A DNA stretch of 64,000 nt from Bacillota bacterium (GTDB taxonomy: Bacteria; Bacillota; Dehalobacteriia; UBA4068), in assembly GCA_030527285.1 (NCBI GenBank), contig JAUNBC010000004.1, positions 5,781 to 69,780 of the forward strand, written 5' to 3'. A program made the position numbers and the translations under genes. Below are positions 323 to 62,730 of this stretch, in pieces (position 1 is the stretch's first letter; each line of letters opens with the position of its first letter). The notes beneath the pieces were generated by a model. It saw nothing but the letters and a program-made list of their open reading frames with translations, did no database searches and was not told where the DNA came from.

Positions 323-339
323 AAGCAACTGGGATAACG

Positions 340-9308: not shown

Positions 9309-9345
9309 GCGCGATCTTGCGCATAAGCTGTGACGAGGTGATAGT

Positions 9346-9600: not shown

Positions 9601-9617
9601 TCCGCCCTGCGCATAAA

Positions 9618-9643
9618 TAAATCCTGCTGCGGCAGGATTTTTG
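9618..9643 (+). terminator. rho-independent terminator
   Basis: ATCCTGC-tgcg-GCAGGAT (9621-9638) followed by TTTT. Confidence 0.65.
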
Positions 9644-9710
9644 CGTATAGATACGGAATTTGTGCATATTCAGCTAATGACAAAATCGCGGTTCTGATAA
9701 GGAGAGGGCG

Positions 9711-10502
9711 ATGATCCGGATACTGTTAAGCGGCGCATATGGCAAAATGGGACGAGCCATGGCCGCCAATATACTAAAAGAGGACGATATGCGCATCGTC
9801 GCGGCGGTGGACGTCAAGGGCGTGGGTGAGGACGTCGGCCTGTTGGCCGGCTGCGCGGCCGCCGGAGTCAGCGTCGGCGGCGATCTGCGCGGCGCTATTG
9901 AGAGCGCGCGGCCCGACGTGCTGCTCGATTTTACCAATGCGCAGGCGGCGAATAAGAATGCGCGGCTGGCGCTGTCTATGGGTCTGCCCTGCGTGGTCGG
10001 CACCACCGGCCTCAGCGACGCTGATCTGGCGGAGCTGAGCGCGCTGTCGCTGGCTCATGACGCGCCCTTGTTCATCGCCGCTAACTTTGCCCTGTCGGCG
10101 GTGCTGATGATGCGCTTTGCCGCCGAGGCGGCAAAGTATTTTCCTGATTATGAGATCGTGGAGATGCACGGCGAGAATAAGCTCGACGCGCCCTCCGGCA
10201 CGGCGCTGGCGACGATGAAGATGATCGCCGCGGCGCGGGAGGCGCAGCCGTCGGCCGCCCAGGGCGGCTATGAGCTGTTGTCAGGCTGCCGCGGCGGCGA
10301 GTATCAGGGCGGGCGCGTGCACAGCCTGCGTTTGCCCGGCGCGGTGGCGGCGCAGGAATGCCTGTTTGGCGGGCTGGGTCAATATCTGAGCATCCGCCAT
10401 GACGCGACCTCGCGCGAATGCTTTTATCCGGGCGTGGCGCTGGCGCTGCGCAGGATCGGCGGACTGCGCGGTCTGGTGATGGGGCTGGAACAGATTATCT
10501 GA
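9711..10502 (+). CDS. dapB: 4-hydroxy-tetrahydrodipicolinate reductase
   Basis: EIVEMHGENKLDAPSGTA signature. N-terminal Rossmann GAYGKMG. Confidence 0.93.
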   Translation: MIRILLSGAYGKMGRAMAANILKEDDMRIVAAVDVKGVGEDVGLLAGCAAAGVSVGGDLRGAIESARPDVLLDFTNAQAANKNARLALSMGLPCVVGTTGLSDADLAELSALSLAHDAPLFIAANFALSAVLMMRFAAEAAKYFPDYEIVEMHGENKLDAPSGTALATMKMIAAAREAQPSAAQGGYELLSGCRGGEYQGGRVHSLRLPGAVAAQECLFGGLGQYLSIRHDATSRECFYPGVALALRRIGGLRGLVMGLEQII

Positions 10503-10539
10503 CGGCGCAAAACGCCTGTGATCCTGTGATATAGACGGA

Positions 10540-10601
10540 AAAAGACTCTCATGAGGCGGCGTAGCCTAAAGGCCATGCCGACTTGCGAGAGTCTTTTGTT
10601 T
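10540..10601 (+). terminator. long compound hairpin terminator after dapB
   Basis: Outer 11-bp stem AAAAGACTCTC / GAGAGTCTTTT (10540-10550 / 10587-10597). Inner stem GGCGTAGCC-taaa-GGCCATGCC (10558-10579). A-run upstream and T-run downstream. Confidence 0.7.
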
Positions 10602-10640
10602 AGCGGCAGATCCGGCGGCTGCGGCCGCGCCGGCTGAAAG

Positions 10641-10669
10641 CCATAAACGGCGTGCCGCGCCGTTTATGG
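10641..10669 (-). terminator. hairpin overlapping the stop codon of the DUF881 gene
   Basis: CCATAAACGGCG / CGCCGTTTATGG, a 12-bp stem with a 5-nt loop. Only a weak T-tract on the minus strand. Confidence 0.4.
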
Positions 10670-11434
10670 AAGCTCGGCGGCGGTTGTTTTTGGCGACGCG
10701 TATTCATAATCGCTGAGCTTAGCGGCGGGGATGATGATATTTTCATTATGCTTGATCGTGGGGAATACCTGATACAGCGTGTTGAGATTTTCGATGATGC
10801 CGCCCGGATAGGTGAGGCCGGTCTCCAGCGTGTCCGGATTACCGATAGCCTTGATGATCACCGGGAACAGCAGCTCCTCGCCGTCGAGCAGTATCACGTA
10901 GGTATCGCGGTATTGCATACGGCCGCTTTCGTCGTAGTAGCTTTTGATCGTCGCTTCCTCGCTGAGCAGGCTGCGGTTGGTGATGCGCGTATCGTTGATG
11001 GCGACGGCCTCCGCGCCCGATACCAACAGCTCGTTGATCAGGTCGATCAGGTCATAATACATCAGATTGCTGTCGCCGGCGATGGTGATGACCACGCCGG
11101 GGCCGGATACCGCCACCGTGCCCACGGCTTTTTGCAGGTTTTCGATATTCGCCTGCACCGTGGTGGTCAACGACATACCGGAGGCGACGATGGCTTCCGT
11201 CTCGGCTAATTGCGCGTTGAGCTGGTTTAGCTCGGCCTCCAGCATATCTTTGTTGTCGTTGACGCTTTTCATGATCATCGCCAGGTTAGCCGAGGATTCG
11301 TTTTGCAGCGACAGGTTCTCGGCTTTATTGGTCTGGTATTGCGCCATCACTAAAATACCGAAGCAGAGGAAGACCACCGTCATCGGTAATTGCCAGTATA
11401 AATGCGATCTGCGGTTTTTAGCTCGTTTGACCAT
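10664..11434 (-). CDS. DUF881 domain protein (YlxW/YlxX-like, division-cluster associated)
   Basis: Start chosen at MVKRAKNRRSHLYWQLPMTVVF (RBS GAGG, 22 nt after the sbp stop). TM segment, coiled coil, and the SGPGVVITIAGD motif typical of DUF881. Confidence 0.75.
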   Translation of the reverse strand: MVKRAKNRRSHLYWQLPMTVVFLCFGILVMAQYQTNKAENLSLQNESSANLAMIMKSVNDNKDMLEAELNQLNAQLAETEAIVASGMSLTTTVQANIENLQKAVGTVAVSGPGVVITIAGDSNLMYYDLIDLINELLVSGAEAVAINDTRITNRSLLSEEATIKSYYDESGRMQYRDTYVILLDGEELLFPVIIKAIGNPDTLETGLTYPGGIIENLNTLYQVFPTIKHNENIIIPAAKLSDYEYASPKTTAAELP

Positions 11435-21586: not shown

Positions 21587-21847
21587 ATAGACCTCCTTGC
21601 TCCCGCCAGCGGCGGAAAAAAATAAGCCTCACCCCGACACGGGATGAAGCATGGCTCCACGGTTCCACCCGAATTATACCGCCTGCGGTATCGCTCGTAT
21701 GCTCTGACGCGGCTTCACGGCGGGGGTTCGCCCCCGCGCTCACCGGTGGTAAATAACGCTTATCCTGCCGCCTTCACAGCTGCCGGCGGCTCTCTTTGAG
21801 GCATCAGACGCTATCCATGTCCGGATCATCGCTTTATTATTGAATTA
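21587..21847 (-). promoter_or_regulatory. T-box riboswitch leader (threonine, ACC specifier) with intrinsic terminator
   Basis: Minus strand, 5' to 3': AGAGA bulge (complement of 21791-21795); candidate specifier ttt-ACC-ACC-gg (complement of 21745-21750); T-box sequence AATTCGGGTGGAACCGTGGAG (complement of about 21655-21677); terminator stem (21626-21650) followed by TTATTTTTTT. Confidence 0.85.
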
Positions 21848-49743: not shown

Positions 49744-50937
49744 ATGACAAAGAGCTTTGAAGAGATCAACGAAAAGATCCGCGCAGGCAAAGCGGTAGTA
49801 GTCACCGCCGAGGAAGTCATCGGTATTGCTAAAGATATCGGCATAAAGGAAGCGGCGAGAAAAGTTGACGTAGTAACAACGGGGACGTTCGGCATCATGT
49901 GCTCCTCCGGCGCTTTTCTTAATTTCTGGCATACCAAGCCCAAGATGAAGATGCAGCATATTTATCTGGACGGCGTACCGGCGGGCGGCGGCATGGCGGC
50001 GGTCGATTGCTATATCGGCGCTACCGCTATCCCCGAGAACGACCCGGCTAACTCGCATCATCCGGGGCATTTCCGTCATGGCGGCGGCCATGTGATCGAG
50101 GATCTGATCGCCGGCCGCGCGGTGGAATTGCGCGCTACGGCCTACGGCACCGATTGCTATCCGCGCCGCAGCCTGGAGCAGACGATCACCCTGGCTGATC
50201 TGCGGCAGGCGTATATCTTCTCGCCGCGCAACAGCTATCAGAATTATAATGCCGGCGTCAACTGCTCGGATAAAACTGTTTATACATATATGGGCATACT
50301 CAAGCCGCATATGGCAAACGTCCATTATTCCTCCGCCGGACAGCTATCGCCGCTGCTCAACGACCCCTATTATCGCACGCTGGGCATTGGCAGCCGCATC
50401 TTTCTCGGCGGCGGCGAGGGTTTCATCGCCTGGGAGGGCACGCAGCATGCGCCCGACGACCCGCGCGATCAACGCGGCCTGCCGCTGGGCGGCGCCGGTA
50501 CCATCGCGGTGATCGGCGATATGAAGCAGATGGACGCGCGCTTTGTGCGCGGCGTCAGCATCACCGGTTACGGCGTATCGATGATGACCGGCATCGGCGT
50601 ACCGATACCGATACTCGATGAGGAAATGCTCTATTACACTACCGTGACCGACGCTGACATCATGGCTCCGATCTGCGATTACGGTCCGGACGGTTATCCG
50701 ACCGGCGAGCCGTGCGTGCTCGGTCATGTCAGCTATGCCGAGCTGAAAAGCGGCGAGATCGACTTCATGGGCAAAAAGATCCGCACCGCACCGCTGTCCA
50801 GCTATGCCAAGGCCAGAGAGATCGCCGCTATGCTCAAGAGCTGGATCAGCGACGGCAAATTCCTGCTCGGGCAGCCTTCGCGTACCTTGCGCAGCGCCGC
50901 CGATTATCAGCCGGGAGGTGTTTTCGATGATAAATAA
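49744..50937 (+). CDS. homocysteine biosynthesis protein, COG1900/DUF39 family
   Basis: MTKSFEEINEKIRAGKAVVVTAEEV...VDVVTTGTFGIMCSSGAFLNF is typical of DUF39. RBS AGGAGG. Confidence 0.85.
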   Translation: MTKSFEEINEKIRAGKAVVVTAEEVIGIAKDIGIKEAARKVDVVTTGTFGIMCSSGAFLNFWHTKPKMKMQHIYLDGVPAGGGMAAVDCYIGATAIPENDPANSHHPGHFRHGGGHVIEDLIAGRAVELRATAYGTDCYPRRSLEQTITLADLRQAYIFSPRNSYQNYNAGVNCSDKTVYTYMGILKPHMANVHYSSAGQLSPLLNDPYYRTLGIGSRIFLGGGEGFIAWEGTQHAPDDPRDQRGLPLGGAGTIAVIGDMKQMDARFVRGVSITGYGVSMMTGIGVPIPILDEEMLYYTTVTDADIMAPICDYGPDGYPTGEPCVLGHVSYAELKSGEIDFMGKKIRTAPLSSYAKAREIAAMLKSWISDGKFLLGQPSRTLRSAADYQPGGVFDDK

Positions 50938-51349
50938 TCAACAAGTCACCAAAAATGTGATCCTGCGCTTTTCTCCCGACGTGGTCGACCGGCCGATAGT
51001 CTATGAGCTGGTTACCGAGTATCATCTGATACCGAATATCATCAAGGCCTCGGTCAATCCCGAGCGCGAGGGCTATATCGTGCTCGGCCTGACCGGCACC
51101 GAGGATAACTTTGAGCGCGGCGTGTTCTATATGCAAGGCCTCGGCATGGAGGTGCAGCTGTTGGCTGACCGTGTCAGCTGGGACGACAACATTTGTACCC
51201 AATGCGGCGCTTGCACCGCCGTTTGTCCCGCCGGCGCGCTGTCTTTGCGGCGGCCGGAAATGGAGCTGCATTTTGACAGCGAGAAATGTATTGTTTGTCA
51301 TATGTGTATCGAGGCGTGTCCTGTTAGTGCCGTACACTTAGATTTTTAG
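50927..51349 (+). CDS. NIL-domain / 2x[4Fe-4S] ferredoxin protein (partner of COG1900)
   Basis: Start MINNQQVTKNVILRF, 11-nt overlap with the upstream gene. NIL domain, then CTQCGACTAVCP and CIVCHMCIEACP. Confidence 0.8.
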   Translation: MINNQQVTKNVILRFSPDVVDRPIVYELVTEYHLIPNIIKASVNPEREGYIVLGLTGTEDNFERGVFYMQGLGMEVQLLADRVSWDDNICTQCGACTAVCPAGALSLRRPEMELHFDSEKCIVCHMCIEACPVSAVHLDF

Positions 51350-51356
51350 CGTTCTG

Positions 51357-51374
51357 ACAAAAATAAGCGGCGCA
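51357..51374 (+). repeat. 18-nt direct repeat, copy 1 (ACAAAAATAAGCGGCGCA)
   Basis: Identical to 51483-51500. Begins 8 nt after the NIL-ferredoxin stop codon. Confidence 0.9.
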
Positions 51375-51405
51375 TAAGTTCGTCACGGCTTCCGGCGGCT
51401 GCGTC

Positions 51406-51428
51406 GGCGTATGTTTTGATACGCCTTT
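51406..51428 (+). terminator. short hairpin with T-run between the two repeat copies
   Basis: GGCGTAT-gttttg-ATACGCC followed by TTT. Confidence 0.3.
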
Positions 51429-51482
51429 GCTCGCCGCTCTCGCCGTTCCTGCTTCTGCTTGCTTCTTTTTGCCAGACTTATA

Positions 51483-51500
51483 ACAAAAATAAGCGGCGCA
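51483..51500 (+). repeat. 18-nt direct repeat, copy 2 (ACAAAAATAAGCGGCGCA)
   Basis: Identical to 51357-51374. Ends 35 nt before the UPF0280 start codon. Confidence 0.9.
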
Positions 51501-51535
51501 CAGGCGCGGCAATACCGCTATTATCCGAGGTTTGT

Positions 51536-52273
51536 ATGCAAGAGGAAAGATTTTATCGCGCCGGGTACGGCGGCGATCTTGAAAGCTATCGTCTGACCAT
51601 CGGCGAGACTGATCTGGCGATCTGTGTGCCGGAAGGCGTTTGGCATGAGCATAGCGGCAAAAAGACGGCCGACTATATCACCAATCAGCGGCGCTTATTG
51701 CAGGAGTACATAGTGCGGCATCCCGAGTTCGCCTCAAGCCATACGCCGCTGCCCGTGGATAAGGGCGCGCCGGCGGTGGCGCGCATCATGATGGTCGCCG
51801 CTAACAAGGCCGGCGTTGGACCGATGGCGGCGGTGGCGGGTACCTTTGCGCTGCTGGCCGGCCGTCTGCTCAGTTATTACAGCGACAATGTGATCGTCGA
51901 GAACGGCGGTGATATTTACCTCAAGAGCAGCCGGCCGCGTACGGTCGGCGTATATGCCGGCGACAGCCCTTTTTCCGGGCTCGTCGGCGTCGTCGTGCCG
52001 GCGGGAAAAACGCCGTGCGGCGTTTGTACCAGCTCCGGCACGGTGGGCAGCTCTTTCAGCTATGGCGTGGCCGACGCGGCTTTGATCTTTGCCGCTGATG
52101 CGCCGTTGGCCGACGCGGTAGCCACCGCCGCCGCCAATCTTGTGCATCAGCCCGGGGACGTGGAGGCCGCCGCTGACTATGCGCTCGGTATCGAGGGCGT
52201 ATACGGCGCGGTGGTGATCTGCAAGGACAAGCTGGCGATCGCCGGCGAGCTGGAATTGGTCAAGACCGCCTGA
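51536..52273 (+). CDS. UPF0280 / COG2122 (ApbE-superfamily-like) protein
   Basis: Start MQEERFYRAG after GAGG. Family motifs GVGPMAAVAG, ENGGDIY, CTSSGTVG. Confidence 0.85.
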   Translation: MQEERFYRAGYGGDLESYRLTIGETDLAICVPEGVWHEHSGKKTADYITNQRRLLQEYIVRHPEFASSHTPLPVDKGAPAVARIMMVAANKAGVGPMAAVAGTFALLAGRLLSYYSDNVIVENGGDIYLKSSRPRTVGVYAGDSPFSGLVGVVVPAGKTPCGVCTSSGTVGSSFSYGVADAALIFAADAPLADAVATAAANLVHQPGDVEAAADYALGIEGVYGAVVICKDKLAIAGELELVKTA

Positions 52274-52383: not shown

Positions 52384-53136
52384 ATGTCAGGTCATTCCAA
52401 ATGGGCGAATATCAAAAGAAAAAAGGGCGCGAACGACGCGGAGCGCGGCAAGATCTTTACCAAGATCGCCAAGGAGATACAGGTGGCGGTGCGTGCCGGC
52501 GGCCCCGACCCGGACGGCAACTTCCGGCTCAAGATGTGCATACAAAAGGCCAAAGCCAATAATATGCCGGCCGATAATATCAACCGCTGCATACAGAAAG
52601 CGGCCGGAGCAGGCACGGACGGCGCGGCGATCGAGGAGTTCTTCTATGAGGGCTACGGCGCGGGCGGCGTAGCCGTGCTCTGCGATATGATGACCGATAA
52701 CCGCACCCGCGCGGCGGCGGAAATACGCTATCTGTTCTCGCGCAATAACGGCAATCTTGGCGAGAGCGGCTGCGTATCGTATATGTTCGAGCGCAAGGGC
52801 GAGATCGCGGTGGACGCCGCCGGTGTGGATGAGGATGAGCTGATGATGGCCGCCCTTGACGCGGGCGCCGAGGATATGAGCGTCGATGAGGAGCGAGCTA
52901 CCATCGTCACCGCACCCGGCGATGTGGAGGCGGTGCAGCAGGCGCTGAGCGAGGCCGGATTCACGGTGATCGAATCGCAGGTAGTGATGTCGCCGTCCAA
53001 TACTATCGAGATCACCGATCTGGAAACGGCGGAAAAGGTGATCAAGCTGATCTCGGCATTAGAGGATAACGACGACGTGCGCGAGGTCTACGCCAATTAC
53101 GATATCGCCGACGCGATCATCGAGCAAATGGAATAA
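52384..53136 (+). CDS. yebC: YebC/PmpR family DNA-binding transcriptional regulator
   Basis: MSGHSKWANIKRKKG... 250 aa. Confidence 0.93.
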   Translation: MSGHSKWANIKRKKGANDAERGKIFTKIAKEIQVAVRAGGPDPDGNFRLKMCIQKAKANNMPADNINRCIQKAAGAGTDGAAIEEFFYEGYGAGGVAVLCDMMTDNRTRAAAEIRYLFSRNNGNLGESGCVSYMFERKGEIAVDAAGVDEDELMMAALDAGAEDMSVDEERATIVTAPGDVEAVQQALSEAGFTVIESQVVMSPSNTIEITDLETAEKVIKLISALEDNDDVREVYANYDIADAIIEQME

Positions 53137-53158
53137 ACGGTTGATCGAGCCGCAATAC

Positions 53159-53188
53159 AAAGACCTTGCAAAGCAAGGTCTTTTTTTT
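53159..53188 (+). terminator. rho-independent terminator after yebC
   Basis: GACCTTGC-aaa-GCAAGGTC followed by T8. Confidence 0.85.
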
Positions 53189-53307
53189 GTATGCGGGAGC
53201 GGGCGGCGGCGGCCATTGCCCCATTAGCAGGAATAGCCGCAGATAGAGCGAATATACCGTTATGTTCCGCGTATTTCCGGCAATTTTGACGATAGGGGAA
53301 GCGACGC

Positions 53308-53883
53308 ATGGCCGTATTGCATAATGCGCTTGACCGTTTCAGCCTGCGCGATCTATTGCTGATCGCGGTGATGGCGGCGCTGGGCGTGGCCTTGAAACCG
53401 ATCATCGTGCCGTTGGCGCATCTGGTCAGCGCGCCGCTATTGATACCGGGCGGCGCTTTGGCCGGCGGTCTGTATATGATGTGGCTGGTGGTGGCGATGG
53501 GGCTGACGCAGAAGCGCGGTACGGCTACCCTGGTCGGATTAGTGCAGGCGCTGCTGGTGACCGTCACCGGCATTGTCGGCAGTCATGGGCTGATGAGCCT
53601 GTTCAGCTATACGTTGCCCGGCGTGATCCTGGACTTGCTGCTGCTGCTGATCGGGCATCGCGTCTGCTGCCGCTATTGCACGTTTATTGCCGGCATGGCA
53701 GCCAATATCGCCGGCGCGGTCTGCGTCAATCTGATCTTTTTCCGCCTGCCGCTGATACCGCTGCTGCTATCGCTGGCGGTGGCGGCTTTTTCCGGCGGCT
53801 TGGGCGGTTTGTTAGCTTGGGAGCTGCTGCAGGCGCTGAAAAAGTATCATATCGGCTTTCATGGCGGCGCGAAGCAAGAATAG
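53308..53883 (+). CDS. ECF-transporter S (substrate-capture) component-like membrane protein, specificity unknown
   Basis: 191 aa, about 6 hydrophobic helices, YkoE/ThiW-like layout. First gene of an operon with two EcfA-type ATPases and an EcfT. Confidence 0.65.
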   Translation: MAVLHNALDRFSLRDLLLIAVMAALGVALKPIIVPLAHLVSAPLLIPGGALAGGLYMMWLVVAMGLTQKRGTATLVGLVQALLVTVTGIVGSHGLMSLFSYTLPGVILDLLLLLIGHRVCCRYCTFIAGMAANIAGAVCVNLIFFRLPLIPLLLSLAVAAFSGGLGGLLAWELLQALKKYHIGFHGGAKQE

Positions 53884-53906
53884 CGTCTGATATAAGGGAG
53901 TTTGCG

Positions 53907-54410
53907 GTGAAAACAAAGCGTATCTGGGCGATAATGATATTCTTAGCGGCGGCGATCGCGGTTCTGGCGCTGCTCAACCGGCCTGCCGTCGATACCGACG
54001 CCGAGGTGCTGTCGCTGGTGGCGGAGGGACAGGTGCTGCGCGTCTATACCTACGGCGAGCTGAAAGAGCTGCCCTGCGTCGAGGTGGAGAAGGAGATACG
54101 CTCCGCCGGCTTCAAAAGCAAGGAAGGCTTGTGGCGCGGCGTGCCGCTGCGCACGATCTTTGCCGACGCCGGTATCGACCTTAGCTCCTATAAGCAGGTG
54201 GTGACGCGCGCCGACGATAGCTTTGTTTCCGCCTTCAGCGTCGAGGAGGTGTTGGCGGATGATAATATCTTCATCGCCTACAGCTTCAACGGCCATGATA
54301 TAGGCGGCCAGGAGGATGGCGGCGACGGGCCGCTGCGCATCGTTATCAGCAAGGATATCTTCGGCACGCGCTCCACACGCTGGCTGTATCAGTTGGAGCT
54401 GCAGCGATGA
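53907..54410 (+). CDS. membrane-anchored exported protein with sulfite-oxidase/YedY-type molybdopterin-binding-domain signature (167 aa)
   Basis: GTG start 6 nt after AAGGGAG. Signal-anchor IWAIMIFLAAAIAVLALL. Domain pattern LKELPCVEVE...WRGVPLRTIFADAG...IFIAYSFNGHDI...DGPLRIVISKDIFGTRSTRWLYQLEL parallels the Oxidored_molyb consensus. Confidence 0.6.
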   Translation: MKTKRIWAIMIFLAAAIAVLALLNRPAVDTDAEVLSLVAEGQVLRVYTYGELKELPCVEVEKEIRSAGFKSKEGLWRGVPLRTIFADAGIDLSSYKQVVTRADDSFVSAFSVEEVLADDNIFIAYSFNGHDIGGQEDGGDGPLRIVISKDIFGTRSTRWLYQLELQR

Positions 54411-55177
54411 CGGCGGAACGCGAGCGCCTGCTGTCCGTTGCAGGGCTGAGCTTTGCCTATCAGCCCGAACGGCTGCTGCTGGATAATATCAGCTTTGAGC
54501 TGTCAGGCGGGCAGCTGCTGGTGCTGGCCGGTCTTTCCGGCAGCGGCAAGACCACTTTAGCGCATATACTGACCGGCATCATTCCCGCCTGCATCGCCGG
54601 GGAGCCAAGCGGCAGCGTGCGCGTGTGCGGCGAGGATATCGCCGGCAAAAAACCGGCGCAGCTGGCCGAGCGGATCGCGCTGGTGTTTCAGGACAGCGAC
54701 GCGCAGCTGATCGCCGCCACCGTTGAGGGCGAGTTGGCCTTCGGTCTGGAAAACCTCTGCGTCGCGCCGGCGGAGATACGCGAGCGGGTTGACCGCCAGC
54801 TGGCCGGTCTGGGTTTTACCGGTTTGGCCGAGCGCCATCCCGACAGCCTGTCCGGCGGGCAGAAAAAGCTGCTGGCGCTGGGCGCGGTGCTGATTTTGGA
54901 GCCGCGCGTGATCATCTTCGACGAGCCGTTCGCGCATTTGGACGAGCAGGGGCGGGAGCTGGTCAAGCGGGCGCTGATGGCCTTGCGCGAGCAGGGGCGG
55001 GGACTGCTGCTGATCGAGCATGATCTGTCGCTGGTAGATTATGCCGATAGCTGGCTGATATTGCATGAGGGGCGTATCGTGGCCGAGGATAGCCCGGCGG
55101 CCTTGCTGGAGCAGCGCGAGCGGCTGCGCGCATGGCAGCTTTGGTACGACGAGGACGACGGCGGGGAGCTGCGATGA
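54407..55177 (+). CDS. ECF/ABC transporter ATPase (dedicated module, A)
   Basis: ATGA overlap with the upstream gene. Walker A GLSGSGKTT, signature LSGGQKK, Walker B IIFDEP. Confidence 0.88.
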   Translation: MTAERERLLSVAGLSFAYQPERLLLDNISFELSGGQLLVLAGLSGSGKTTLAHILTGIIPACIAGEPSGSVRVCGEDIAGKKPAQLAERIALVFQDSDAQLIAATVEGELAFGLENLCVAPAEIRERVDRQLAGLGFTGLAERHPDSLSGGQKKLLALGAVLILEPRVIIFDEPFAHLDEQGRELVKRALMALREQGRGLLLIEHDLSLVDYADSWLILHEGRIVAEDSPAALLEQRERLRAWQLWYDEDDGGELR

Positions 55178-55809
55178 TCGAGATAGATAATATCAATTTC
55201 AGTTATCCGCGCGCCCAGCAGCCGGTTTTCACCGCTTTTTCATTATGCGTGGAAAAGGGCGGCGTGACCGCGCTCAGCGGGCCGAACGGCTGCGGTAAAA
55301 CGACATTGGCGCGGCTGATCGTCGGTTTGCTGCGCCCTTCGGCGGGGCGTATCGTCATCGACGGTACGGATATCGCGCCGCTCAATTTGTTTGAGATCGG
55401 GCAGCGCGCCGGCTATTTATTCCAAAACCCCAACCGTCAGCTGTTCAATACCTCGGTCTATGAGGAGATCGCCGTCGGCCTGCGTAATCGCGGGCTGGCC
55501 GCGGACGTTGTCGAGCGGCGGGTTGCCGAGCTGCTGGAGGATTTTTATCTCACCGCTTATCGCGACGTTTTTCCGCTGCAATTATCGCTGGGCGAGCGTC
55601 AGCGCGTGGCTTTGGCCGCGGTGCTGGCTTTGGACAGCGATTATCTGCTGCTCGACGAGCCGACCTGCGGCTTGGATATGCGTTGCCGGCGGCAGCTGGG
55701 CGAATTGCTGCTTGACCTTTGCGCGCGCCGGCAGCGGGGGCTGCTCGTGATCAGCCATGAGCGGAGCTTCATTCGCCGCTACTGCGATAGAGAGCTGGTG
55801 CTCGGATGA
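55174..55809 (+). CDS. ECF/ABC transporter ATPase (dedicated module, A')
   Basis: Start MIEIDNINFSYP, ATGA overlap. GPNGCGKTT, LSLGERQR, LLLDEP. Confidence 0.88.
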   Translation: MIEIDNINFSYPRAQQPVFTAFSLCVEKGGVTALSGPNGCGKTTLARLIVGLLRPSAGRIVIDGTDIAPLNLFEIGQRAGYLFQNPNRQLFNTSVYEEIAVGLRNRGLAADVVERRVAELLEDFYLTAYRDVFPLQLSLGERQRVALAAVLALDSDYLLLDEPTCGLDMRCRRQLGELLLDLCARRQRGLLVISHERSFIRRYCDRELVLG

Positions 55810-56540
55810 ACCTCTACCGGCGCGATGCGCGGCTGAAGCTGCTGATGCTGCTGATGATATCGGGAACGGCGATGTTCGTCGCCCGTCCGCCGCAATTGCT
55901 GGCGCTGCTGGGCTTGACGCTGCTGATACTGCTATGCGGGCGCGTCGATCCGCGGCAGACATGGCGGCAGGCACGCCGCATACTCGGCCTGCTGCTGATG
56001 CTGTTCATACTGCAATGTTTGTTCAATCGCGGCGGCGAGCCGCTGCTGGCTGCCGGCGATCTCACGCTCGTCACCAGCGAGGGTTTGCGGCTGTCCACCG
56101 TGGTCAGCCTGCGTTTGCTGATCGTGGTGCTGACGGCGCTGATCGTGCTGAACGGCCGCACCGACGATTATCTGCTGGCCTTCACCCAATGCCATATGCC
56201 GTATGAGCTGGCGTTCATGTTGATGGCGGCGCTGCGCTTCCTGCCGCTGCTGCGCGAGGAGGCGCTGGACATATACGCGGCCACGCAAATGCGCGGCGTG
56301 GATATCGCGGGCGCGCGCCTTGGGCAAAAGCTGCGCCTGTACCTGAATATGTGCCTGCCGGTGGTGGCGGGCGCGATACGCCGCAGCGAAGAGATGTCGT
56401 TGGCCATGGAGGCGCGCTGCTTCCGCATTTTGCCGCAGCGCACCGCCCTGCGCCGCCTGCGTTTTGACCGCGCCGACCGGTGGTGGCTGGCGGCCTTTTT
56501 TCTCGCTTATGCCGGGATAATCATTGCCTTCGCCGCTTGA
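55806..56540 (+). CDS. ECF transporter T component (CbiQ family), dedicated module
   Basis: ATGA overlap. Multi-TM protein with coupling motifs YAATQMRGVD and SLAMEARCF. Confidence 0.85.
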   Translation: MNLYRRDARLKLLMLLMISGTAMFVARPPQLLALLGLTLLILLCGRVDPRQTWRQARRILGLLLMLFILQCLFNRGGEPLLAAGDLTLVTSEGLRLSTVVSLRLLIVVLTALIVLNGRTDDYLLAFTQCHMPYELAFMLMAALRFLPLLREEALDIYAATQMRGVDIAGARLGQKLRLYLNMCLPVVAGAIRRSEEMSLAMEARCFRILPQRTALRRLRFDRADRWWLAAFFLAYAGIIIAFAA

Positions 56541-56565
56541 CAAGGGGCGGGCATACTATTATACT
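56537..56565 (+). promoter_or_regulatory. candidate internal sigma-A promoter for yqeC-yqeB-xdhC-selD
   Basis: TTGACA (56537-56542, overlapping the ecfT stop), 17 nt, TATACT (56560-56565). Confidence 0.5.
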
Positions 56566-56591: not shown

Positions 56592-57308
56592 ATGTTGCTG
56601 TCCGAGGCTTTGCAAATACCCAACGGCATAACGGCGGTGGTGGGCGGCGGTGGTAAAACCAGTCTGATCGACGCTTTGGCGCGGGAGTTATCCGCGCGGG
56701 GCAAGGTGCTGATCTATACCACCACGCATATCATGCGTCCGCGCGAGCATTTGACGATGATCGAGCCGCTGCCGGCGCATATACGCGCGGCCTTTGCTCA
56801 ACAGCAGGTGATAGTGGCGGGCATGGAGTGTGCGGACGGGCGGCTGGGCGCTTTCCCGCCTTTGGAGCGCCATCTGAGCTCGCTCGCCGATTACGTGCTG
56901 GTCGAGGCTGACGGAGCCAAGCGTTTGCCGGTCAAAGCGCCGGCCGCGCATGAGCCGGTATTGCCGGCCGATACCAGGCTGGTGATCGCCGTGGCCGGAC
57001 TGGACGCGCTGGGGCGGCGCATCGCCGATGCGGCCTTTCGCGCGCCCCTGTACGCGAGCCTGCTGCGTAAGAGTATAGACTCGGTGATAACCGCGGATGA
57101 TATAGCCACGGTATTGATGCATCCTCAGGGACAGATGAAAAACGTCAAATGCGCCGCGGCCTACGTGCTGAACAAGGCCGATGATCAACAAAGGCAGACG
57201 GCGGCGGCCGTGATCGCCGCGCGGCTGGACGCGCCGGCAGCGGTCACGGTATTGGCCGGGCAGCCGCGGTTGATCAGCTTGTGGAGGGATAGTAAATGCT
57301 TGTTTTGA
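56592..57308 (+). CDS. yqeC: selenium-dependent hydroxylase accessory protein YqeC
   Basis: ITAVVGGGGKTSLIDALAREL P-loop-like N-terminus, about 238 aa. Synteny with yqeB and selD. Confidence 0.8.
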   Translation: MLLSEALQIPNGITAVVGGGGKTSLIDALARELSARGKVLIYTTTHIMRPREHLTMIEPLPAHIRAAFAQQQVIVAGMECADGRLGAFPPLERHLSSLADYVLVEADGAKRLPVKAPAAHEPVLPADTRLVIAVAGLDALGRRIADAAFRAPLYASLLRKSIDSVITADDIATVLMHPQGQMKNVKCAAAYVLNKADDQQRQTAAAVIAARLDAPAAVTVLAGQPRLISLWRDSKCLF

Positions 57309-58096
57309 TCAAGGGAGCCGGCGATCTGGCCAGCGGCGTAGCCGTGCGGCTGCATCGCGCCGGTTATGATATCGTGATGACCGATCTGCCGCGGCCGACG
57401 GCGATACGCCGCAGCGTCGCCTTTTGCGAGGCGATTATCGACGGCAGCGCCGAGCTGGAAGGCATACGCGCCGTGCTGGCGGCGGACAGCGGCGAGGCGC
57501 GGGCTATCGTCGCGCGCGGCGAGATAGCGGTGCTGGCCGACGCCGAGGCGCTCTGCGTCGACGGGCTTGCGCCGCAGGTCGTGGTCGATGCGATATTAGC
57601 CAAACATAATCTCGGCACCTCGATCAAGGACGCGCCGCTGGTGATCGGCCTCGGCCCCGGTTTTTACGCGGGCCGTGATTGCCACGCGGTGATCGAGACG
57701 ATGCGCGGCCATGATCTGGGGCGGGTGATATGGGACGGCGCGGCTGCCGCCAATACCGGCGTACCCGGGGAGATCGCGGGCTATGCCGCCGAGCGCCTGC
57801 TGCGCACGCCGCAGTCCGGCGTATTCCGTGAGCTGGCGCGTATCGGCGATATCGTGGAGGCCGGCGCGGTGGTGGCGGAGGTGGACGGCCAGCCGGTGCG
57901 GGCGAATATCGGCGGCGTATTGCGCGGGCTGCTGCGCAGCGGCGTCAGCGTAACGGCGAACATGAAATGCGGCGACGTGGATCCGCGCGGCCGCGTTGAA
58001 TACTGTCGCAGCGTTTCCGATAAGGCGCGCGCCATCGGCGGCGGCGTGCTGGAGGCGATATTATATTTTCAAAGGAGCGGTAAAAATGAAGGATAA
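57296..58096 (+). CDS. yqeB: selenium-dependent molybdenum hydroxylase system protein, YqeB (EF2563) family
   Basis: MLVLIKGAGDLASGVAVRLHRAGYDIVMTDLPRPTAIRRSVAFCEAIIDG matches my recollection of the family N-terminus. 13-nt overlap with yqeC. Confidence 0.8.
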   Translation: MLVLIKGAGDLASGVAVRLHRAGYDIVMTDLPRPTAIRRSVAFCEAIIDGSAELEGIRAVLAADSGEARAIVARGEIAVLADAEALCVDGLAPQVVVDAILAKHNLGTSIKDAPLVIGLGPGFYAGRDCHAVIETMRGHDLGRVIWDGAAAANTGVPGEIAGYAAERLLRTPQSGVFRELARIGDIVEAGAVVAEVDGQPVRANIGGVLRGLLRSGVSVTANMKCGDVDPRGRVEYCRSVSDKARAIGGGVLEAILYFQRSGKNEG

Positions 58097-59093
58097 GGTT
58101 TTAGCGGCGGTGGCGGCGGAATTGCGCGCCGGAGGAGCCGGGTATCTATATACGCTGATCGACGGCGAGTATGCCGGCAGTAAAGCTTATTTCGGCGCTG
58201 CGCGGGTATGCAATAACGACGACCTGCTGCCTTTGTTCGAACAGCTGCGGCAAAGCCGTCCGCAGCCGGACGGCGTGATCGACAGCGTCGCCGGTCATGT
58301 CTTTTGCGAGCGCATCCAACCGCGTCCGCGCTTATGTATTTGCGGCGGCGGGCATGTATCGCTGCCCCTGGCGCAGATCGCCGATATGCTCGGCTTTGCC
58401 GTGACGGTGCTCGACGACCGCGAGGAATTCGCCAATGCGCGGCGCTTCCCGCAGGCGGAGCTGTATTGCGGCGATTTCGTCAGCGGCTTGCAAGCCTTCG
58501 GCGGCGGGAGCAATGATTATTTCGTCATTATCACCTCCGGCCATCTCCATGACCGCGCCTGTTTGGAGCAGATATTGCGCGGTAAATATGCTTATGTGGG
58601 GATGATCGGCTCCAGACCCAAGCGCAAGGCGGTATATGAGCAAATGCTGGCGCAGGGCTTTACGCAGGCGCAGTTAGATACCGTGCATTCGCCGATCGGC
58701 CTGAATATCGGCGCGGAAACTCCGGCGGAGATAGCGGTGTGCATCGCCGCCGAGATCATCGAGGTCAAATCGCGCATCGGCGGAGTCGGCTGGGAGCCGG
58801 CGCTGCTCGAGGCGCTGCAAGCGCAGCAGAAGCCGGCGGCGTTGGTGGTGATCGTCGATCAGCGCGGCTCCTCGCCGCGCGGCGTGGGCGCGCGTATGCT
58901 GGTGCGCGCCGACGGCAGCATTGCCGGCACTGTGGGCGGCGGCAGCTCCGAGGCCGAGGCGATACGCGCGGCGGTCAAGATCGCGGACGCGGGCGGCAGC
59001 GGCGTGTTCCATTGCGATATGACCAATACCTCGGCCGTGGAGCAGGGGATGGTATGCGGCGGGACGATCGACGTATTTATCGAGGCAATATGA
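58086..59093 (+). CDS. xdhC: XdhC/CoxI family molybdenum-cofactor insertion/maturation protein
   Basis: Start MKDKVLAAV, 11-nt overlap with yqeB. Rossmann segment LCICGGGHVSLPLAQIADMLGFAVTVLDDR. Canonical XdhC_CoxI motifs (GSSPRGVGARMLV...GTVGGGSSE...MVCGGTIDVFIE) at the C-terminus. Confidence 0.8.
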   Translation: MKDKVLAAVAAELRAGGAGYLYTLIDGEYAGSKAYFGAARVCNNDDLLPLFEQLRQSRPQPDGVIDSVAGHVFCERIQPRPRLCICGGGHVSLPLAQIADMLGFAVTVLDDREEFANARRFPQAELYCGDFVSGLQAFGGGSNDYFVIITSGHLHDRACLEQILRGKYAYVGMIGSRPKRKAVYEQMLAQGFTQAQLDTVHSPIGLNIGAETPAEIAVCIAAEIIEVKSRIGGVGWEPALLEALQAQQKPAALVVIVDQRGSSPRGVGARMLVRADGSIAGTVGGGSSEAEAIRAAVKIADAGGSGVFHCDMTNTSAVEQGMVCGGTIDVFIEAI

Positions 59094-59144: not shown

Positions 59145-60200
59145 ATGGCCGTTGACCAGGATCACCGAGAGCAGATCAAGCTGACTTCATTAGCCTCCTG
59201 CTCTGGCTGAGGAGCGAAAGTCGGCGCAGGCGCGCTGGCGCAATTATTGGAGGGCATCAGGGTACGCTATGATGAAAACCTGCTCGTCGGCTTCGATAAG
59301 TCCGACGACGCCTCGGTGTATAAGCTCAATGATGAATTAGCCATTGTGCAGACGGTGGACTTTTTCCCGCCGATCGCCGACGATCCCTATCTGTTCGGCC
59401 AGATCGCCGCGGCCAACGCATTATCGGACGTTTACGCGATGGGCGGCGAGCCCAAGCTGGCGCTGAACCTGCTGTGCTTCCCTGAGGACTTGCCGCGGCA
59501 TATCGTGCATGAGATCTTGCGCGGCGGCTATGACAAGGCCTATGAGGCCGGCGTGATCATTACCGGCGGGCACAGCATCTTTGACCCCGAGCCAAAATAC
59601 GGTCTGTGCGTGACCGGCTTCGTGCATCCGCAAAAGCTGCTGACCAACAGCGGCGCCAAGGCAGGCGACGTGCTGTATCTGACCAAGCGGCTGGGCATCG
59701 GCGTGATGACTACCGCCAACAAGGCGGGCCTGCTGTCGGCGGCGGGGCTGGAGACGGCGATGACGCAGATGGCGACGCTGAACAAGGCGGCGCGTGACGT
59801 GCTGGTCAAATACCGCGTCCACGCCGTCACCGACGTTACCGGCTTCTCGCTGCTCGGTCACGCTTTGGAGATGGCCGCCGGCAGCAAGGCGGCGATCGAG
59901 ATCGACACGGCGGCGGTGGATATCATCCCCGAGGCGCTGGAGCACGCGGCGGCGGGGCTGCTGCCGGGCGGTATGTACCGCAACCGCGATTTTGCCGAGG
60001 CGCAGGTCGAGGCCGGAGACGTGGGGCAGCTGCTTTGCGACATGCTCTATGATCCGCAGACCTCGGGCGGGCTGCTGATTGCCGTGGACGCGGGCGACGC
60101 CGACGCGATGGGAGCGGAATTAGCGGGCGCGGTCCCGTCGGCGCAGCGTATCGGGCGGGTGATCGAGTATAACGGCGGCAAGCGGGTATTCCTCAAGTAA
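59145..60200 (+). CDS. selD: selenide, water dikinase (selenophosphate synthetase) with in-frame UGA selenocysteine at codon 22
   Basis: ATG 59145, 7 nt after AAGGGGGA. MAVDQDHREQIKLTSLASCSG-U-GAKVGAGALAQLLEGIRVRYDENLLVGFD... restores the SelD glycine-rich active-site loop. The only in-frame stop before 60198 is TGA 59208-59210. The track ORF starts artificially at TTG 59247. Confidence 0.9.
59208..59210 (+). other. UGA selenocysteine recoding codon in selD
   Basis: The TGA aligns with the catalytic Cys/Sec position (G-[CU]-G-x-K) of SelD. The reading frame is continuous across it. Confidence 0.8.
59224..59241 (+). promoter_or_regulatory. candidate SECIS-like GC-rich hairpin downstream of the UGA
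   Basis: Imperfect palindrome GCGCAGGCGCGCTGGCGC beginning 14 nt after the UGA. Not folded computationally. Confidence 0.25.
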
Positions 60201-60296: not shown

Positions 60297-61856
60297 TCAG
60301 ATATTGCTCAGCGTGGTTTGCAGCAGCTGTACGGTTTTGCCGATCGAGGACAGAGTCACGCTTTCCAGCGGCGAATGAGTGCCGCTGATGCTCGGGCCGA
60401 TGCTGATCATTTGCAGCGCGCTGTTCTTGGCGGCAAAAAAGCCTAACTCGCTGCCGCCATAGGCGACCAGCGTTTGCATCTGCTCGCCATAGAGGTCGGC
60501 ATAGACCTCGGCGGTGATCAACTGCAGCTGATTATCGGCGGCGGCCGGCCAGACCGGTATCGCGTCGCTGCTTACGGCGGTAAGCAGGCATTGCTCGGCC
60601 AGACGCTGCTGGCGCAGCAGCGCTTGGCCGAGCAGCAGCGTATGCGAGCTGCGCAGATTGCGGTCAAAGCCGGCCTGCGTGGCGCTGATCTGTACGTTAT
60701 ACAAGGTGGCGGAATTTACCAGCCCGTCGGCGGCGGAAACGCTTTGCTGCCCCTCGGGCGACAGCAGGATGAAGTTGAGCAGGTTATTACGCTCGCTGGT
60801 GCTCATTACCAGCGACGGCAGCTCGACCTTCTCATAGCTGACGGTGATACCCGGCTCGCTGGCGGCGTAGGTCAGCGGTAATTGCTCCTGATACTGCGAG
60901 ATCTGATGCGAGAGTATCAATTCCTCGGCCGCGTCGATGACGATCAACGCGCTGGCCGTATGGGGCGTGGTGTTAGGCTCGCTGCCGCCTTGCAGCTGAG
61001 CCAGCTCGAACAGTATATTCTGCGATTGCAGATCGGCGAGGATATTGGCCAGAAGCAGTACGGCGTTGAGCCGGCTCTCGCTGCTCTCGCTGGTGGCGTA
61101 GCCGCCCTGTAAGCCGCCGACGCTGATACGCACGGCGGTGTTCTTCTTCGGCGCGGTCGGGTTGAGCGCGGCGGTGGCGGTCAGAGTTTGCTCCGCCGAT
61201 GCGCCGATGGTCAGCGTATCGTCGGATTTGGCGTCGAGGTTGATCACGTAAGTAACGTCGCTGAGGCGTTCGGCAGAAATGGCGGCCGCGCCGCTCATAT
61301 CGCCTTCGCCATTGCTGGTGAAGATCAGGCGCAGCGGGCCATGCGGCAGCTCGGCGCGTAGTAAATACAGAGCCATCGCCATGCCGACGCCGTTATCCGC
61401 GCCGAGGCTGGTATTGTCCGCGCTCAGGGTCTCGCCGTCATTGAGCAGGGTGACGGCGTCGGTCAGCGGGTCGTATTCCACGCCCTCGGCAGCGACGCAG
61501 AACATATCCAGATGCGTATGGATAACGGTGAGCGGGCTGTCCGCATATTCGGCGCTGGCCGGTATATCGACGATGATATTATGCAGCGCGTCGCGCTGCG
61601 GCTGATAGCCCAGATCGAGCAGCCGCTGACATATATAGTCGGCGATAGCCTGCTCATTGCCGCTGCTGCGCGGGATGGCGGAGATGGCGGTGAATTCCTC
61701 GACGATCATTTCGACGGCGGCGGCTATCTCTTCGTCATTGAGCGCGCTGTCGGTATCGACCTGGACGGTCAGCTCCGGCGGCGCGGTACAGCCGCAAAGC
61801 AGCGTCAGCAGCAGTATTGTTATTATGGCGATGGTCAGCAGTTTTTTCTTATACAT
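60297..61856 (-). CDS. pepD: aminoacyl-histidine dipeptidase (PepD, M20C) with lipoprotein-type signal peptide
   Basis: M20 motifs HTHLDMFCV and GADNGVGMAMAL. N-terminus MYKKKLLTIAIITILLLTLLCGCTAPP. RBS AGGAG. Confidence 0.85.
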   Translation of the reverse strand: MYKKKLLTIAIITILLLTLLCGCTAPPELTVQVDTDSALNDEEIAAAVEMIVEEFTAISAIPRSSGNEQAIADYICQRLLDLGYQPQRDALHNIIVDIPASAEYADSPLTVIHTHLDMFCVAAEGVEYDPLTDAVTLLNDGETLSADNTSLGADNGVGMAMALYLLRAELPHGPLRLIFTSNGEGDMSGAAAISAERLSDVTYVINLDAKSDDTLTIGASAEQTLTATAALNPTAPKKNTAVRISVGGLQGGYATSESSESRLNAVLLLANILADLQSQNILFELAQLQGGSEPNTTPHTASALIVIDAAEELILSHQISQYQEQLPLTYAASEPGITVSYEKVELPSLVMSTSERNNLLNFILLSPEGQQSVSAADGLVNSATLYNVQISATQAGFDRNLRSSHTLLLGQALLRQQRLAEQCLLTAVSSDAIPVWPAAADNQLQLITAEVYADLYGEQMQTLVAYGGSELGFFAAKNSALQMISIGPSISGTHSPLESVTLSSIGKTVQLLQTTLSNI

Positions 61857-61884: not shown

Positions 61885-62730
61885 TTATTTATCCAGCCAT
61901 TGGCGGTGACGGCCGGCGCGTACCTGCTCGATCAGCTCCTGCGATATCGAGGCCATGGTCGGGTTTTCCGGTATCTCATCGCGGTTGAACCAGCGCAGTT
62001 CGCTCAATTCGCCGTCCAGCATTTGCGGTTTGCTATCGCCGTCCAGCTCGGCGAAAAAGCCGATCATGATCGTATCGGAAAAGGCCCAGGGCTGGCTTTG
62101 ATAATAGCGGATATTGCGTATATGCAGGCCGGTTTCTTCAAAGACCTCGCGCGCTACCGCCTGCTCAAGGGTCTCGCCGATCTCGAGAAAGCCGGCGATC
62201 AGCGCGAACCGTTTGTAGGTGCTGCGTTTATTCTTGGCCATCAGCAGCCGCTCGCCGTCGGTGACGGCGACGATGATAGCCGGAGCGATCTTCGGGTATT
62301 CGATCATCCCGCAGTCAGCGCAGACGCGGGCGCGCTCGGCGAGGCTGTCGCTCATCGGCTTGCCGCAGCGCCCGCAATACTGATGCGCGCTGTACCAGCG
62401 GTATAATTGCAGGCCGGTGATACCGGCAAAAGCCAAATGCTGCGGCTGATAGGTGCGGAATTGCAGCGTGTCTTGAAAAGACCAGCCGGCGGGCGGCGGG
62501 CCGGCGCCGCTATCGGCGCAGAGGAAGAAACGCTGCTCGTCGATGGCGAACAGATAGCGATACTCATGGAGCGGTAAAGCGGCGGCCTGCCGCAATTCGC
62601 CGACGGTAGGCAGCCTGTCGCCGGTCATCAGCACCGTATTGCCGCGATAAAGCAGCGCGATATCCGTATCCGCCGGCCGCGCGAGGGAGAAGCTGTTATC
62701 AAATTGATGCGGCGCGATCTGATGTATCAT
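61885..62730 (-). CDS. nudC: NAD(+) diphosphatase (NADH pyrophosphatase, Nudix)
   Basis: Zinc ribbon CGRCGKPMSDSLAERARVCADCG. Nudix box GFLEIGETLEQAVAREVFEETG. NudC signature SQPWAFS. Confidence 0.88.
   Translation of the reverse strand: MIHQIAPHQFDNSFSLARPADTDIALLYRGNTVLMTGDRLPTVGELRQAAALPLHEYRYLFAIDEQRFFLCADSGAGPPPAGWSFQDTLQFRTYQPQHLAFAGITGLQLYRWYSAHQYCGRCGKPMSDSLAERARVCADCGMIEYPKIAPAIIVAVTDGERLLMAKNKRSTYKRFALIAGFLEIGETLEQAVAREVFEETGLHIRNIRYYQSQPWAFSDTIMIGFFAELDGDSKPQMLDGELSELRWFNRDEIPENPTMASISQELIEQVRAGRHRQWLDK

Follow-up and report, generated by a model that had tools for sequence, protein, structure and literature searches.

PruR of Agrobacterium tumefaciens (Atu3496; PDB entries 7kos, 7kou, 7kom, 7kp2 and 7rkb) is a periplasmic, pterin-binding protein with a single small domain of the sulfite-oxidase (SUOX) fold, a "mini-SUOX" protein of ~150 residues in the crystallised chains and ~170 aa with its secretion signal (PMC11194511). 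Its ligands are tetrahydromonapterin and neopterin, whose ring is sandwiched by Tyr104 and Trp160 and receives a hydrogen bond from Asn102 (PMC11194511). Here we describe a mini-SUOX protein that is encoded within a transporter operon. The gene lies at positions 53907-54410 on the + strand of a 64,000-nucleotide stretch from a Bacillota bacterium (contig JAUNBC010000004.1; the whole stretch is called the window below), and its operon encodes an energy-coupling factor (ECF) transporter. On balance we favour the view that a dedicated importer for a pterin of the molybdenum cofactor (Moco) family has mini-SUOX as its membrane-anchored, outward-facing subunit, which binds the ligand and has no catalytic role. 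The evidence comes from the fold of the protein, the loss of the molybdenum-ligating Cys, conserved gene order, natural fusions of the transporter's S component to a SUOX-like domain, and the association of homologous operons with Moco riboswitches.

Moco is regarded as a cofactor that each user must make for itself. Caenorhabditis elegans, which obtains Moco from bacterial food, is the known exception, and to our knowledge no Moco transporter has been identified. A 2013 census of riboswitch regulons recorded uptake systems for B12, thiamine, riboflavin, queuosine and folate, and none for Moco (PMC3766115). According to a 2026 review, the route of pterins across bacterial membranes is still unknown (PMC13259868). 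Each of the elements, namely pterin binders of the PruR type, ECF importers and Moco riboswitches, is already known separately; the novelty here would be an ECF transporter provided with a SUOX-fold binding subunit on the outside, and probably a new substrate class. In the literature that we searched, which took in not all of the older work on the S-component family, no paper joins an ECF transporter or S component with Moco, molybdopterin or pterins. The same literature held no description of an ECF-linked mini-SUOX family, including when approached through COG4721, PF09819 and Oxidored_molyb. A preliminary description of this gene, made from the DNA sequence, knew of no described function for such a protein; that statement stands for the ECF-linked family and fails for mini-SUOX proteins at large, as those of the PruR type bind pterins (PMC11194511).

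A SUOX fold that has lost the molybdenum-ligating cysteine

The open reading frame (ORF) at 53907-54410 is a real gene, with a GTG start 6 bases past the ribosome-binding site AAGGGAG and a product of 167 aa. Residues 3-23 (53913-53975) form a hydrophobic helix in the AlphaFold models, in agreement with the signal-anchor helix of the preliminary description, and the Lys/Arg residues preceding this helix indicate a signal anchor of N-in, C-out orientation. Neither a lipobox Cys nor a twin-arginine (RR) motif is present in the N-terminal sequence (VKTKRIWAIM...). The SUOX-fold domain occupies residues ~31-166 (53997-54404). A Pfam scan of the 167-aa protein matched PF00174 (Oxidored_molyb) only, over residues 46-166 (E = 1.5e-12; 47.9 bits against a cut-off of 24), and found no dimerisation or heme domain. 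AlphaFold gave a mean predicted local distance difference test (pLDDT) score of 79 with a 4-sequence alignment, rising to 94 with a 68-sequence alignment (predicted TM score, pTM, 0.83). Compared by Foldseek with the PDB, the pLDDT-94 model returned 38 significant matches, every one of the SUOX fold, among them SorA (3.7e-9), SoxC, sulfite oxidases, YedY, nitrate reductase and PruR (TM score 0.69-0.77, target-normalised). The block-by-block resemblance to SUOX enzymes that had been noticed by eye is thus far beyond chance, and neither structure nor profile searches pointed to any other fold. At ~140 aa, compared with 260-460 aa in the enzymes, the domain is indeed too short for a complete enzyme and constitutes an extracytoplasmic SUOX-fold module.

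One feature of the preliminary description did not survive alignment, namely the assignment of Cys57, in the motif PCVEVE, as the molybdenum ligand. This residue is misplaced and unconserved. Among the first four homologues position 57 reads C, Y, A and V, and in a 127-member alignment it is occupied by Ala, Ser, Pro and others, with Cys in 1/127, the window protein alone. When the family profile was aligned by hhalign with a canonical CAGN SUOX domain (the C-terminal domain of P0142; probability 98.4%), the segment KEIRSAGFKS was paired with AVLECAGNPE, which places the ligand Cys opposite Ser66. In a HMMER alignment to A. tumefaciens PruR, the Ser66 column receives Trp70, the residue that the authors of the PruR study identified as the replacement of the molybdenum-ligating Cys (PMC11194511). 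Column 66 holds Ser in 82 and Thr in 22 of the 127 family members and Cys in none, and the soluble domain of 38 members is entirely without Cys. Profile alignment and conservation therefore rule out Cys57 as a ligand. By hhalign, the hairpin past position 66 lacks 5 residues relative to its canonical counterpart. Given that Cys is missing from the ligand column across 127 relatives, the family appears to be a non-catalytic derivative of the Moco-binding fold and not an enzyme; as a cofactor-ligating enzyme, the protein envisaged earlier is contradicted by the failure of homologues to retain the Cys. The database name of the mini-SUOX family, "molybdopterin-dependent oxidoreductase", is almost certainly a misnomer. 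A different, semi-conserved Cys was seen at alignment position 157 (52/127 members) in a C-terminal motif R-W-C-K-Y, where the window protein has Thr157; it might contact metal or dithiolene in the members that carry it.

The positions that are conserved in mini-SUOX are D104-x-F106, GGxGP at 138-142 and D150-x-F-x-x-R155, along with Ser66 at the former ligand position. A search of PDB sequences with the 68-member family profile ranked PruR first (7kom, 7.9e-9; 7kos, 5.6e-7), followed by SorA (5.7e-6). In the alignment with PruR, Asp104, the sole invariant residue of the family, stands opposite Asn102, and the Tyr or Phe at position 106 stands opposite the pterin-stacking Tyr104. No equivalent of PruR Trp160 could be aligned in mini-SUOX, and the PW motif of PruR is absent, Ser66 occupying the position of its Trp. 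Two further motifs find counterparts by hhalign among the Moco-pocket motifs of the enzymes: GGxGP-[LYF]-R at 138-144 corresponds to HGxPxR, and D150-x-F-x-x-R155-x-x-K/R-[WYF]-L corresponds to PGxxGxKxVKWL. We propose that the domain retains a pterin pocket in which Ser has taken the place of the molybdenum-ligating Cys.

Association with an ECF transporter

The gene is indeed embedded in a transporter operon, as first described, and contigs unrelated to one another show the same succession of S component, mini-SUOX, EcfA, EcfA' and EcfT. A family profile search covering 1.8 billion representative proteins yielded 1180 mini-SUOX matches at E<1e-3 and 272 at E<1e-10, mostly of 165-180 aa and with the same N-terminal helix. 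The S component has at least 635 related protein clusters, which go by the NCBI name "ECF transporter S component". With mini-SUOX as the query, 10 of 11 loci had the S component upstream and EcfA-A'-T immediately downstream. With the S component as the query, 80 metagenome loci were obtained, 30 of them of at least 10 kb, and within these 30 SUOX-like ORFs were present in 26 and a mini-SUOX or fusion in 20. Single ORFs that fuse S component, transmembrane helix and SUOX domain were found in P0096 (379 aa), P0102 (364 aa), L081/L083 (364 aa) and L094 (358 aa). Because the N- and C-terminus of S components are both cytoplasmic, the extra transmembrane helix of these fusions places the SUOX domain outside the cell, beside the S component. 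Synteny and fusions together make a strong case that mini-SUOX belongs to the ECF transporter, as an accessory subunit of a dedicated, group I-like system.

The S component carries a Cys motif, HRxCCxxC(C), which reads GHRVCCRYC in the window (residues ~119-128) and is kept in most of the subfamily, including the fusions. Possible roles are metal contact, dithiolene contact or lipidation. A universal metal site was ruled out by the absence of the motif from the S components of L003, L004 and L006, in which RRGIDSLPL replaces it. A search of PDB sequences with the S-component profile detected no solved relative and did not detect YkoE. We also note a 4.6-kb contig labelled as a metagenome-assembled genome of Methanobacterium sp. 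(L013), on which the SLH-domain and SUOX/ECF genes are of the kind typical for Firmicutes; misbinning, and not an archaeal instance of the system, is the probable explanation.

In the window, a terminator-like hairpin with a T-run (53159-53183, +) ends yebC and forms the 5' boundary of the transporter operon. The S component (53308-53883, +), 191 aa long and of the PF09819/COG4721 type (Pfam PF09819, 52 bits), is separated from mini-SUOX by a 23-nt gap, and the remaining junctions within 53308-56540 overlap. The start of the EcfA ATPase gene (54407-55177, +) overlaps the mini-SUOX stop (ATGA), suggesting translational coupling. It is followed by the EcfA' ATPase (55174-55809, +), for which the likely ATG at 55174 gives 211 aa as in homologues although the longest ORF runs from 55132, and by EcfT, a transmembrane coupling subunit of the CbiQ family (55806-56540, +). 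A second ecfA-ecfA'-ecfT set at ~325-2823 (+) is probably a shared housekeeping ECF module, and its presence shows that the system at 53-56.5 kb is dedicated and additional.

Downstream of ecfT lie genes for YqeC (56592-57308, +; selenium-dependent molybdenum cofactor maturation; TIGR03172, 194 bits; PF19842), YqeB (57296-58096, +; selenium-dependent molybdenum cofactor biosynthesis; TIGR03309, 358 bits), an XdhC-family Moco insertion chaperone (58086-59093, +; PF13478 and PF02625; NF045664 at 307 bits, below its cut-off) and the selenophosphate synthetase SelD (59145-60200, +). SelD is itself a selenoprotein, with an ATG at 59145 and an in-frame TGA at 59208-59210 in the active-site motif SG-U-GAK; a plain ORF finder shortens its start to 59247. 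Judged by their TIGRFAM names, yqeC-yqeB-xdhC-selD make up the maturation set for selenium-dependent molybdenum hydroxylases. We found no terminator between the ecfT block and the yqeC block, and the 51-nt gap between ecfT and yqeC contains a sigma-70-like promoter (56537-56565, +; TTGACA-17-TATACT, 11/12), which leaves co-transcription of the transporter with the maturation genes uncertain.

Several features around these operons were recorded. Upstream of yebC, 49744-52273 (+) encodes a COG1900-type homocysteine biosynthesis enzyme (PF01837), a NIL-domain 4Fe-4S ferredoxin and a UPF0280/ApbE-like protein (PRK04334 family), a trio that resembles a sulfur-incorporation cassette and is unrelated to mini-SUOX. 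Downstream of selD are an M20-family peptidase (60297-61856, -) and a NUDIX NADH pyrophosphatase (61885-62730, -); YgeY-like M20 peptidases often occur beside selenium-dependent hydroxylase clusters in E. coli-type loci. An unrelated T-box leader (RF00230, 95 bits) is found at 21637-21838 (-).

Riboswitches and neighbouring genes in related loci

Riboswitches were called by Rfam scans of 36 related loci. The Mo/W-cofactor riboswitch RF01055 was present in 10 of them, with 47-73 bits where the gathering score is 36. In seven (L003, L004, L006, L010, L047, L052 and L060) it lies directly 5' of the S-component/SUOX operon on the same strand, with copies in tandem in L010 and L047. Tandem copies in L084 and L088 stand before the gene of a surface HID+SUOX protein adjoining the ECF operon, and the copy in L027 precedes a TupA-type tungstate operon of the ATP-binding cassette (ABC) type that likewise adjoins the ECF operon. 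No thiamine pyrophosphate (TPP), tetrahydrofolate (THF), preQ1 or cobalamin element was found by Rfam in the related loci, and no riboswitch class besides Moco/Tuco lies directly upstream of the operons, the flavin mononucleotide (FMN) riboswitch of L005 being on the opposite strand. RF01055 is represented by both its P3-containing and its P3-lacking ("Tuco") type. The latter was linked to the tungsten cofactor by Regulski et al., who had also drawn attention to P3-lacking motifs that precede "sulphite oxidase" genes, puzzling in this position, in Syntrophomonas wolfei (PMC2408646). On inspection, the L010 aptamers are followed by terminator hairpins whose 5' arms are able to pair with the 3' strand of P1, and the expression platforms look like the usual OFF-switch design. 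With such a design, the operons are most likely expressed when the cofactor is scarce, like acquisition genes. A regular expression written by hand to capture the Moco motif found nothing beyond its training examples.

Genes for MobB-like proteins, XdhC, a MobA-like nucleotidyltransferase and MoeA are recurrent neighbours in the related loci. The fuller operons encode lipoproteins or SLH/fn3-anchored proteins with 1-9 SUOX-like domains, and in the surface multi-SUOX proteins inspected the CAGN Cys was absent. They also include extracytoplasmic PF01663 nucleotide-pyrophosphatase/phosphodiesterase enzymes with signal peptides, some bearing SUOX-like N-terminal domains, and in a separate lineage a purple-acid-phosphatase/metallophosphoesterase domain is fused to EcfT; either esterase type is present in 19 of the 30 loci of at least 10 kb. 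An APH/RIO-fold small-molecule kinase was found in at least 6 loci.

Flavinylation components (ApbE, FMN_bind proteins) are encoded in ~10 related loci, and some versions of the system may include an extracytoplasmic redox step, for example one that keeps a bound pterin reduced. In L044, a lipoprotein encoded at 10145-11185 (-) has an FMN_bind domain with a flavinylation motif fused to a SUOX-like domain, and in L047 the first gene past the tandem Moco riboswitches (8751-9830, +) encodes an ApbE-like flavin transferase lipoprotein. MotA/ExbB-like and DUF2149 proteins recur beside the ECF/SUOX genes (L011 6449-7403; L047 16199-17300; L075, L076, L081 and L087), as do Shr-like HID domain surface proteins and DUF364/DUF4213 and NTPase_1 genes.

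Proposed role, alternatives and known systems

Of the two roles imagined in the preliminary description, a capture subunit for a pterin/Mo(W) species is favoured by synteny, by the S::SUOX fusions, by the Moco/Tuco riboswitches of homologous operons and by kinship with PruR. In the mechanism that we propose, the mini-SUOX domain would capture a pterin of the Mo/W-cofactor family outside the cell, candidate ligands being Mo- or W-molybdopterin, metal-free molybdopterin, a precursor or a dephosphorylated derivative. The ligand would then pass to the adjacent S component, with the conserved transmembrane helix (or the fusion) keeping the pair together, and the EcfAA'T module would power uptake. 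Once in the cytoplasm, it would be handed over in this organism to YqeC, YqeB, XdhC and SelD for selenium-dependent molybdenum hydroxylases, and elsewhere to MobB, the MobA-like transferase and XdhC. In the fuller versions, anchored SUOX-domain proteins could relay the ligand to the importer, a secreted nucleotide-pyrophosphatase or metallophosphoesterase could cut back dinucleotide or phosphate groups, and re-phosphorylation of the imported ligand could fall to a cytoplasmic APH-type kinase. Salvage of thiamine, riboflavin and NAD as a rule follows this course, with phosphate or nucleotide trimmed outside, import, and re-phosphorylation inside. Since molybdopterin has a terminal phosphate and forms the dinucleotides MGD and MCD (molybdopterin guanine and cytosine dinucleotide), it too would suit such a scheme, which would be senseless for molybdate. 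More tentatively, anaerobic Firmicutes could salvage the Mo/W cofactor or its molybdopterin moiety by means of SUOX receptors, trimming enzymes, mini-SUOX/ECF import, and re-activation and insertion by kinase, MobB and XdhC; surface SUOX-fold "receptors" would then take cofactor released from other cells.

The main rival explanation is that the ECF system imports molybdate and/or tungstate and that mini-SUOX captures the oxyanion. Such a role would suit a fold whose active-site region in the enzymes binds sulfite, sulfate or phosphate, a system that adjoins Moco maturation genes, and homologous operons preceded by Moco/Tuco riboswitches, the classic control of oxyanion transporters (PMC2408646); the occurrence of both riboswitch types is also what a metal-agnostic oxyanion carrier would lead one to expect. 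However, the best-conserved positions of mini-SUOX comprise the acidic residues D104 (invariant) and D150 and the aromatic aligned with the pterin-stacking Tyr of PruR, with no oxyanion cage, and the closest characterised relatives have pterins as ligands. The recurrent secreted pyrophosphatases/phosphoesterases and the APH-type kinase would have no role in oxyanion uptake, and in L027 a tungstate ABC transporter of the TupA type, preceded by a riboswitch of its own, lies beside the ECF system. The esterases, the kinase and this separate operon argue that the ligand is organic and phosphorylated and not an oxyanion; moreover, we know of no oxyanion-binding S component, and we regard oxyanion import as unlikely. 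A non-Moco pterin or related heterocycle (monapterin, neopterin, a folate-pathway pterin or 7-deazaguanine), bound as in PruR and only indirectly linked to the Moco genes, strikes us as decidedly improbable. It would accord with PruR, a binder of tetrahydromonapterin and neopterin, being the best PDB sequence match (PMC11194511), with the 5-residue-shorter hairpin past position 66, which partly resembles the truncated pocket of PruR, and with a window operon that has no riboswitch, but Moco/Tuco is the sole riboswitch class directly upstream of related operons, THF, preQ1 and TPP elements were not found there, and the neighbours are specific to Moco (MobB, XdhC, the MobA-like transferase, MoeA, YqeB and YqeC). 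Furthermore, mini-SUOX has neither the PW motif nor the DcpA partner that mark PruR.

The second role imagined at the outset, a surface reductase, corresponds to a genuine extracytoplasmic molybdoenzyme, a minimal MsrP/YedY-like protein that prepares the transporter substrate. PF00174 is an oxidoreductase domain family, and related loci with flavinylated FMN_bind proteins, ApbE and one FMN_bind::SUOX-like fusion could be read in its favour, but a Cys at the ligand position is found in 0/127 relatives (38 of which have no soluble-domain Cys at all), the N-terminus is without the twin-arginine signal that exported Moco enzymes need, Pfam detects no dimerisation or heme domain, and OFF-switch-like expression platforms fit acquisition genes. 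With no redox partner in the window, and FMN_bind partners in some related loci only, we find the reductase unsupported and very improbable. An importer of selenium (selenite or selenide) that serves the adjacent SelD/YqeB/YqeC pathway was suggested by the position of the operon directly before yqeC-yqeB-xdhC-selD and by the Cys-rich HRxCCxxC motif of the S component. We give it next to no chance: selenium genes adjoin the system in none of ~90 related loci, and this failure of the window context to recur led us to rule selenium transport out. The Cys motif is also missing in L003, L004 and L006, and no SUOX-fold protein is known to us to bind selenium.

Other observations weigh against import of a Moco-family pterin, whose identity as the ligand is predicted. 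Moco is labile, and we know of no report of its uptake by bacteria. Some hosts make Moco themselves, and C. ragsdalei P11, in which the mini-SUOX homologue is CLRAG_34070, has moeA beside the system. The window operon, a minimal form of the system, has neither esterase nor kinase, and in the window RF01055 was detected neither with the gathering threshold nor, over 52900-53500, with a cut-off of E<=10; no other riboswitch was found upstream of the operon either. The Moco link there consequently rests on yqeC-yqeB-xdhC-selD and on homology. Among related loci, the riboswitch is confined to 10 of 36, and the FMN_bind/ApbE partners seen in some loci point to a redox step for which the model has no place. 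PruR binds small non-Moco pterins, and its authors deem it unable to hold Moco (PMC11194511). Finally, Moco riboswitches classically control Mo/W oxyanion transporters (PMC2408646), so that the riboswitch by itself cannot separate cofactor from oxyanion.

A riboswitch-controlled ECF importer with a SUOX-fold capture subunit nevertheless provides a concrete, cloneable candidate for Moco/molybdopterin uptake. If import of a Moco-family pterin is true, the system would be the first Moco importer in any organism and the first case of an ECF transporter in which a separate external protein binds an organic cofactor as the substrate, extending the ECF paradigm, in which the S component binds the substrate directly, to dependence on an outside binding protein. 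Moco would become a cross-fed "vitamin" in anoxic communities, with consequences for the sharing of metabolites within gut, rumen and sediment communities and for cofactor supply to selenium-dependent molybdenum hydroxylases. The finding would also explain >1,000 representative clusters that are now annotated "molybdopterin-dependent oxidoreductase".

Among characterised proteins, mini-SUOX most resembles PruR: both have ~150-170 aa, with an export signal and a single SUOX-fold domain outside the cytoplasm, and both have lost the molybdenum-ligating Cys. By alignment, mini-SUOX also appears to keep the pterin-stacking Tyr/Phe and the adjacent hydrogen-bonding position of PruR (F106/Y104 and D104/N102). 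They differ in sequence (identity ~14-17%) and at the Cys position, where PruR has Trp (PW) and mini-SUOX Ser or Thr. PruR is soluble, Proteobacterial and encoded with the cyclic di-GMP enzyme DcpA, in a signalling role, whereas the mini-SUOX family belongs to Firmicutes, is anchored by a transmembrane helix, shares an operon or a single polypeptide with an ECF S component, and has links to Moco riboswitches and Moco genes. No DcpA-type GGDEF-EAL or histidine-kinase partner was found beside mini-SUOX in the window or related loci, the neighbours being ECF S, A, A' and T. The SUOX enzymes SorA (2blf), chicken sulfite oxidase (1sox) and YedY/MsrP (1xdq) have the same fold (Foldseek E 1e-7 to 4e-9) and the motifs xGVxL, xDG[FY], GxP[LV]R and a C-terminal KW/YL strand in common with mini-SUOX. 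In contrast to these larger proteins, mini-SUOX is without the molybdenum-ligating Cys, the dimerisation or heme domain and the twin-arginine signal, and its post-ligand hairpin is shorter.

As a transporter subunit, mini-SUOX is comparable to CbiN, NikN and NikK/NikL, the accessory extracytoplasmic components of cobalt and nickel ECF transporters (Rodionov, Eitinger). These, too, are small membrane-anchored extra subunits beside the S component of a dedicated ECF system, with natural fusions; their fold is unrelated, and the systems carry Co2+ or Ni2+. We know of no vitamin-type ECF system with an external binding protein. The fuller versions of the system recall, by analogy only, the haem relays of Gram-positive bacteria (Isd, Shr/Shp/HtsABC), in which several anchored proteins repeat one binding domain upstream of a membrane importer; here up to 9 SUOX-like repeats occur with SLH, fn3 or Shr-like HID domains. 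The fold (SUOX as opposed to NEAT), the transporter class and the cofactor all differ. With the molybdate and tungstate importers ModABC, TupABC and WtpABC, the system shares the riboswitch, in homologous loci, and the metabolic neighbourhood (PMC2408646). In those classical ABC importers a periplasmic protein binds the oxyanion, whereas the transporter described here is of the ECF type and is accompanied by a pterin-fold module and phosphoesterases.

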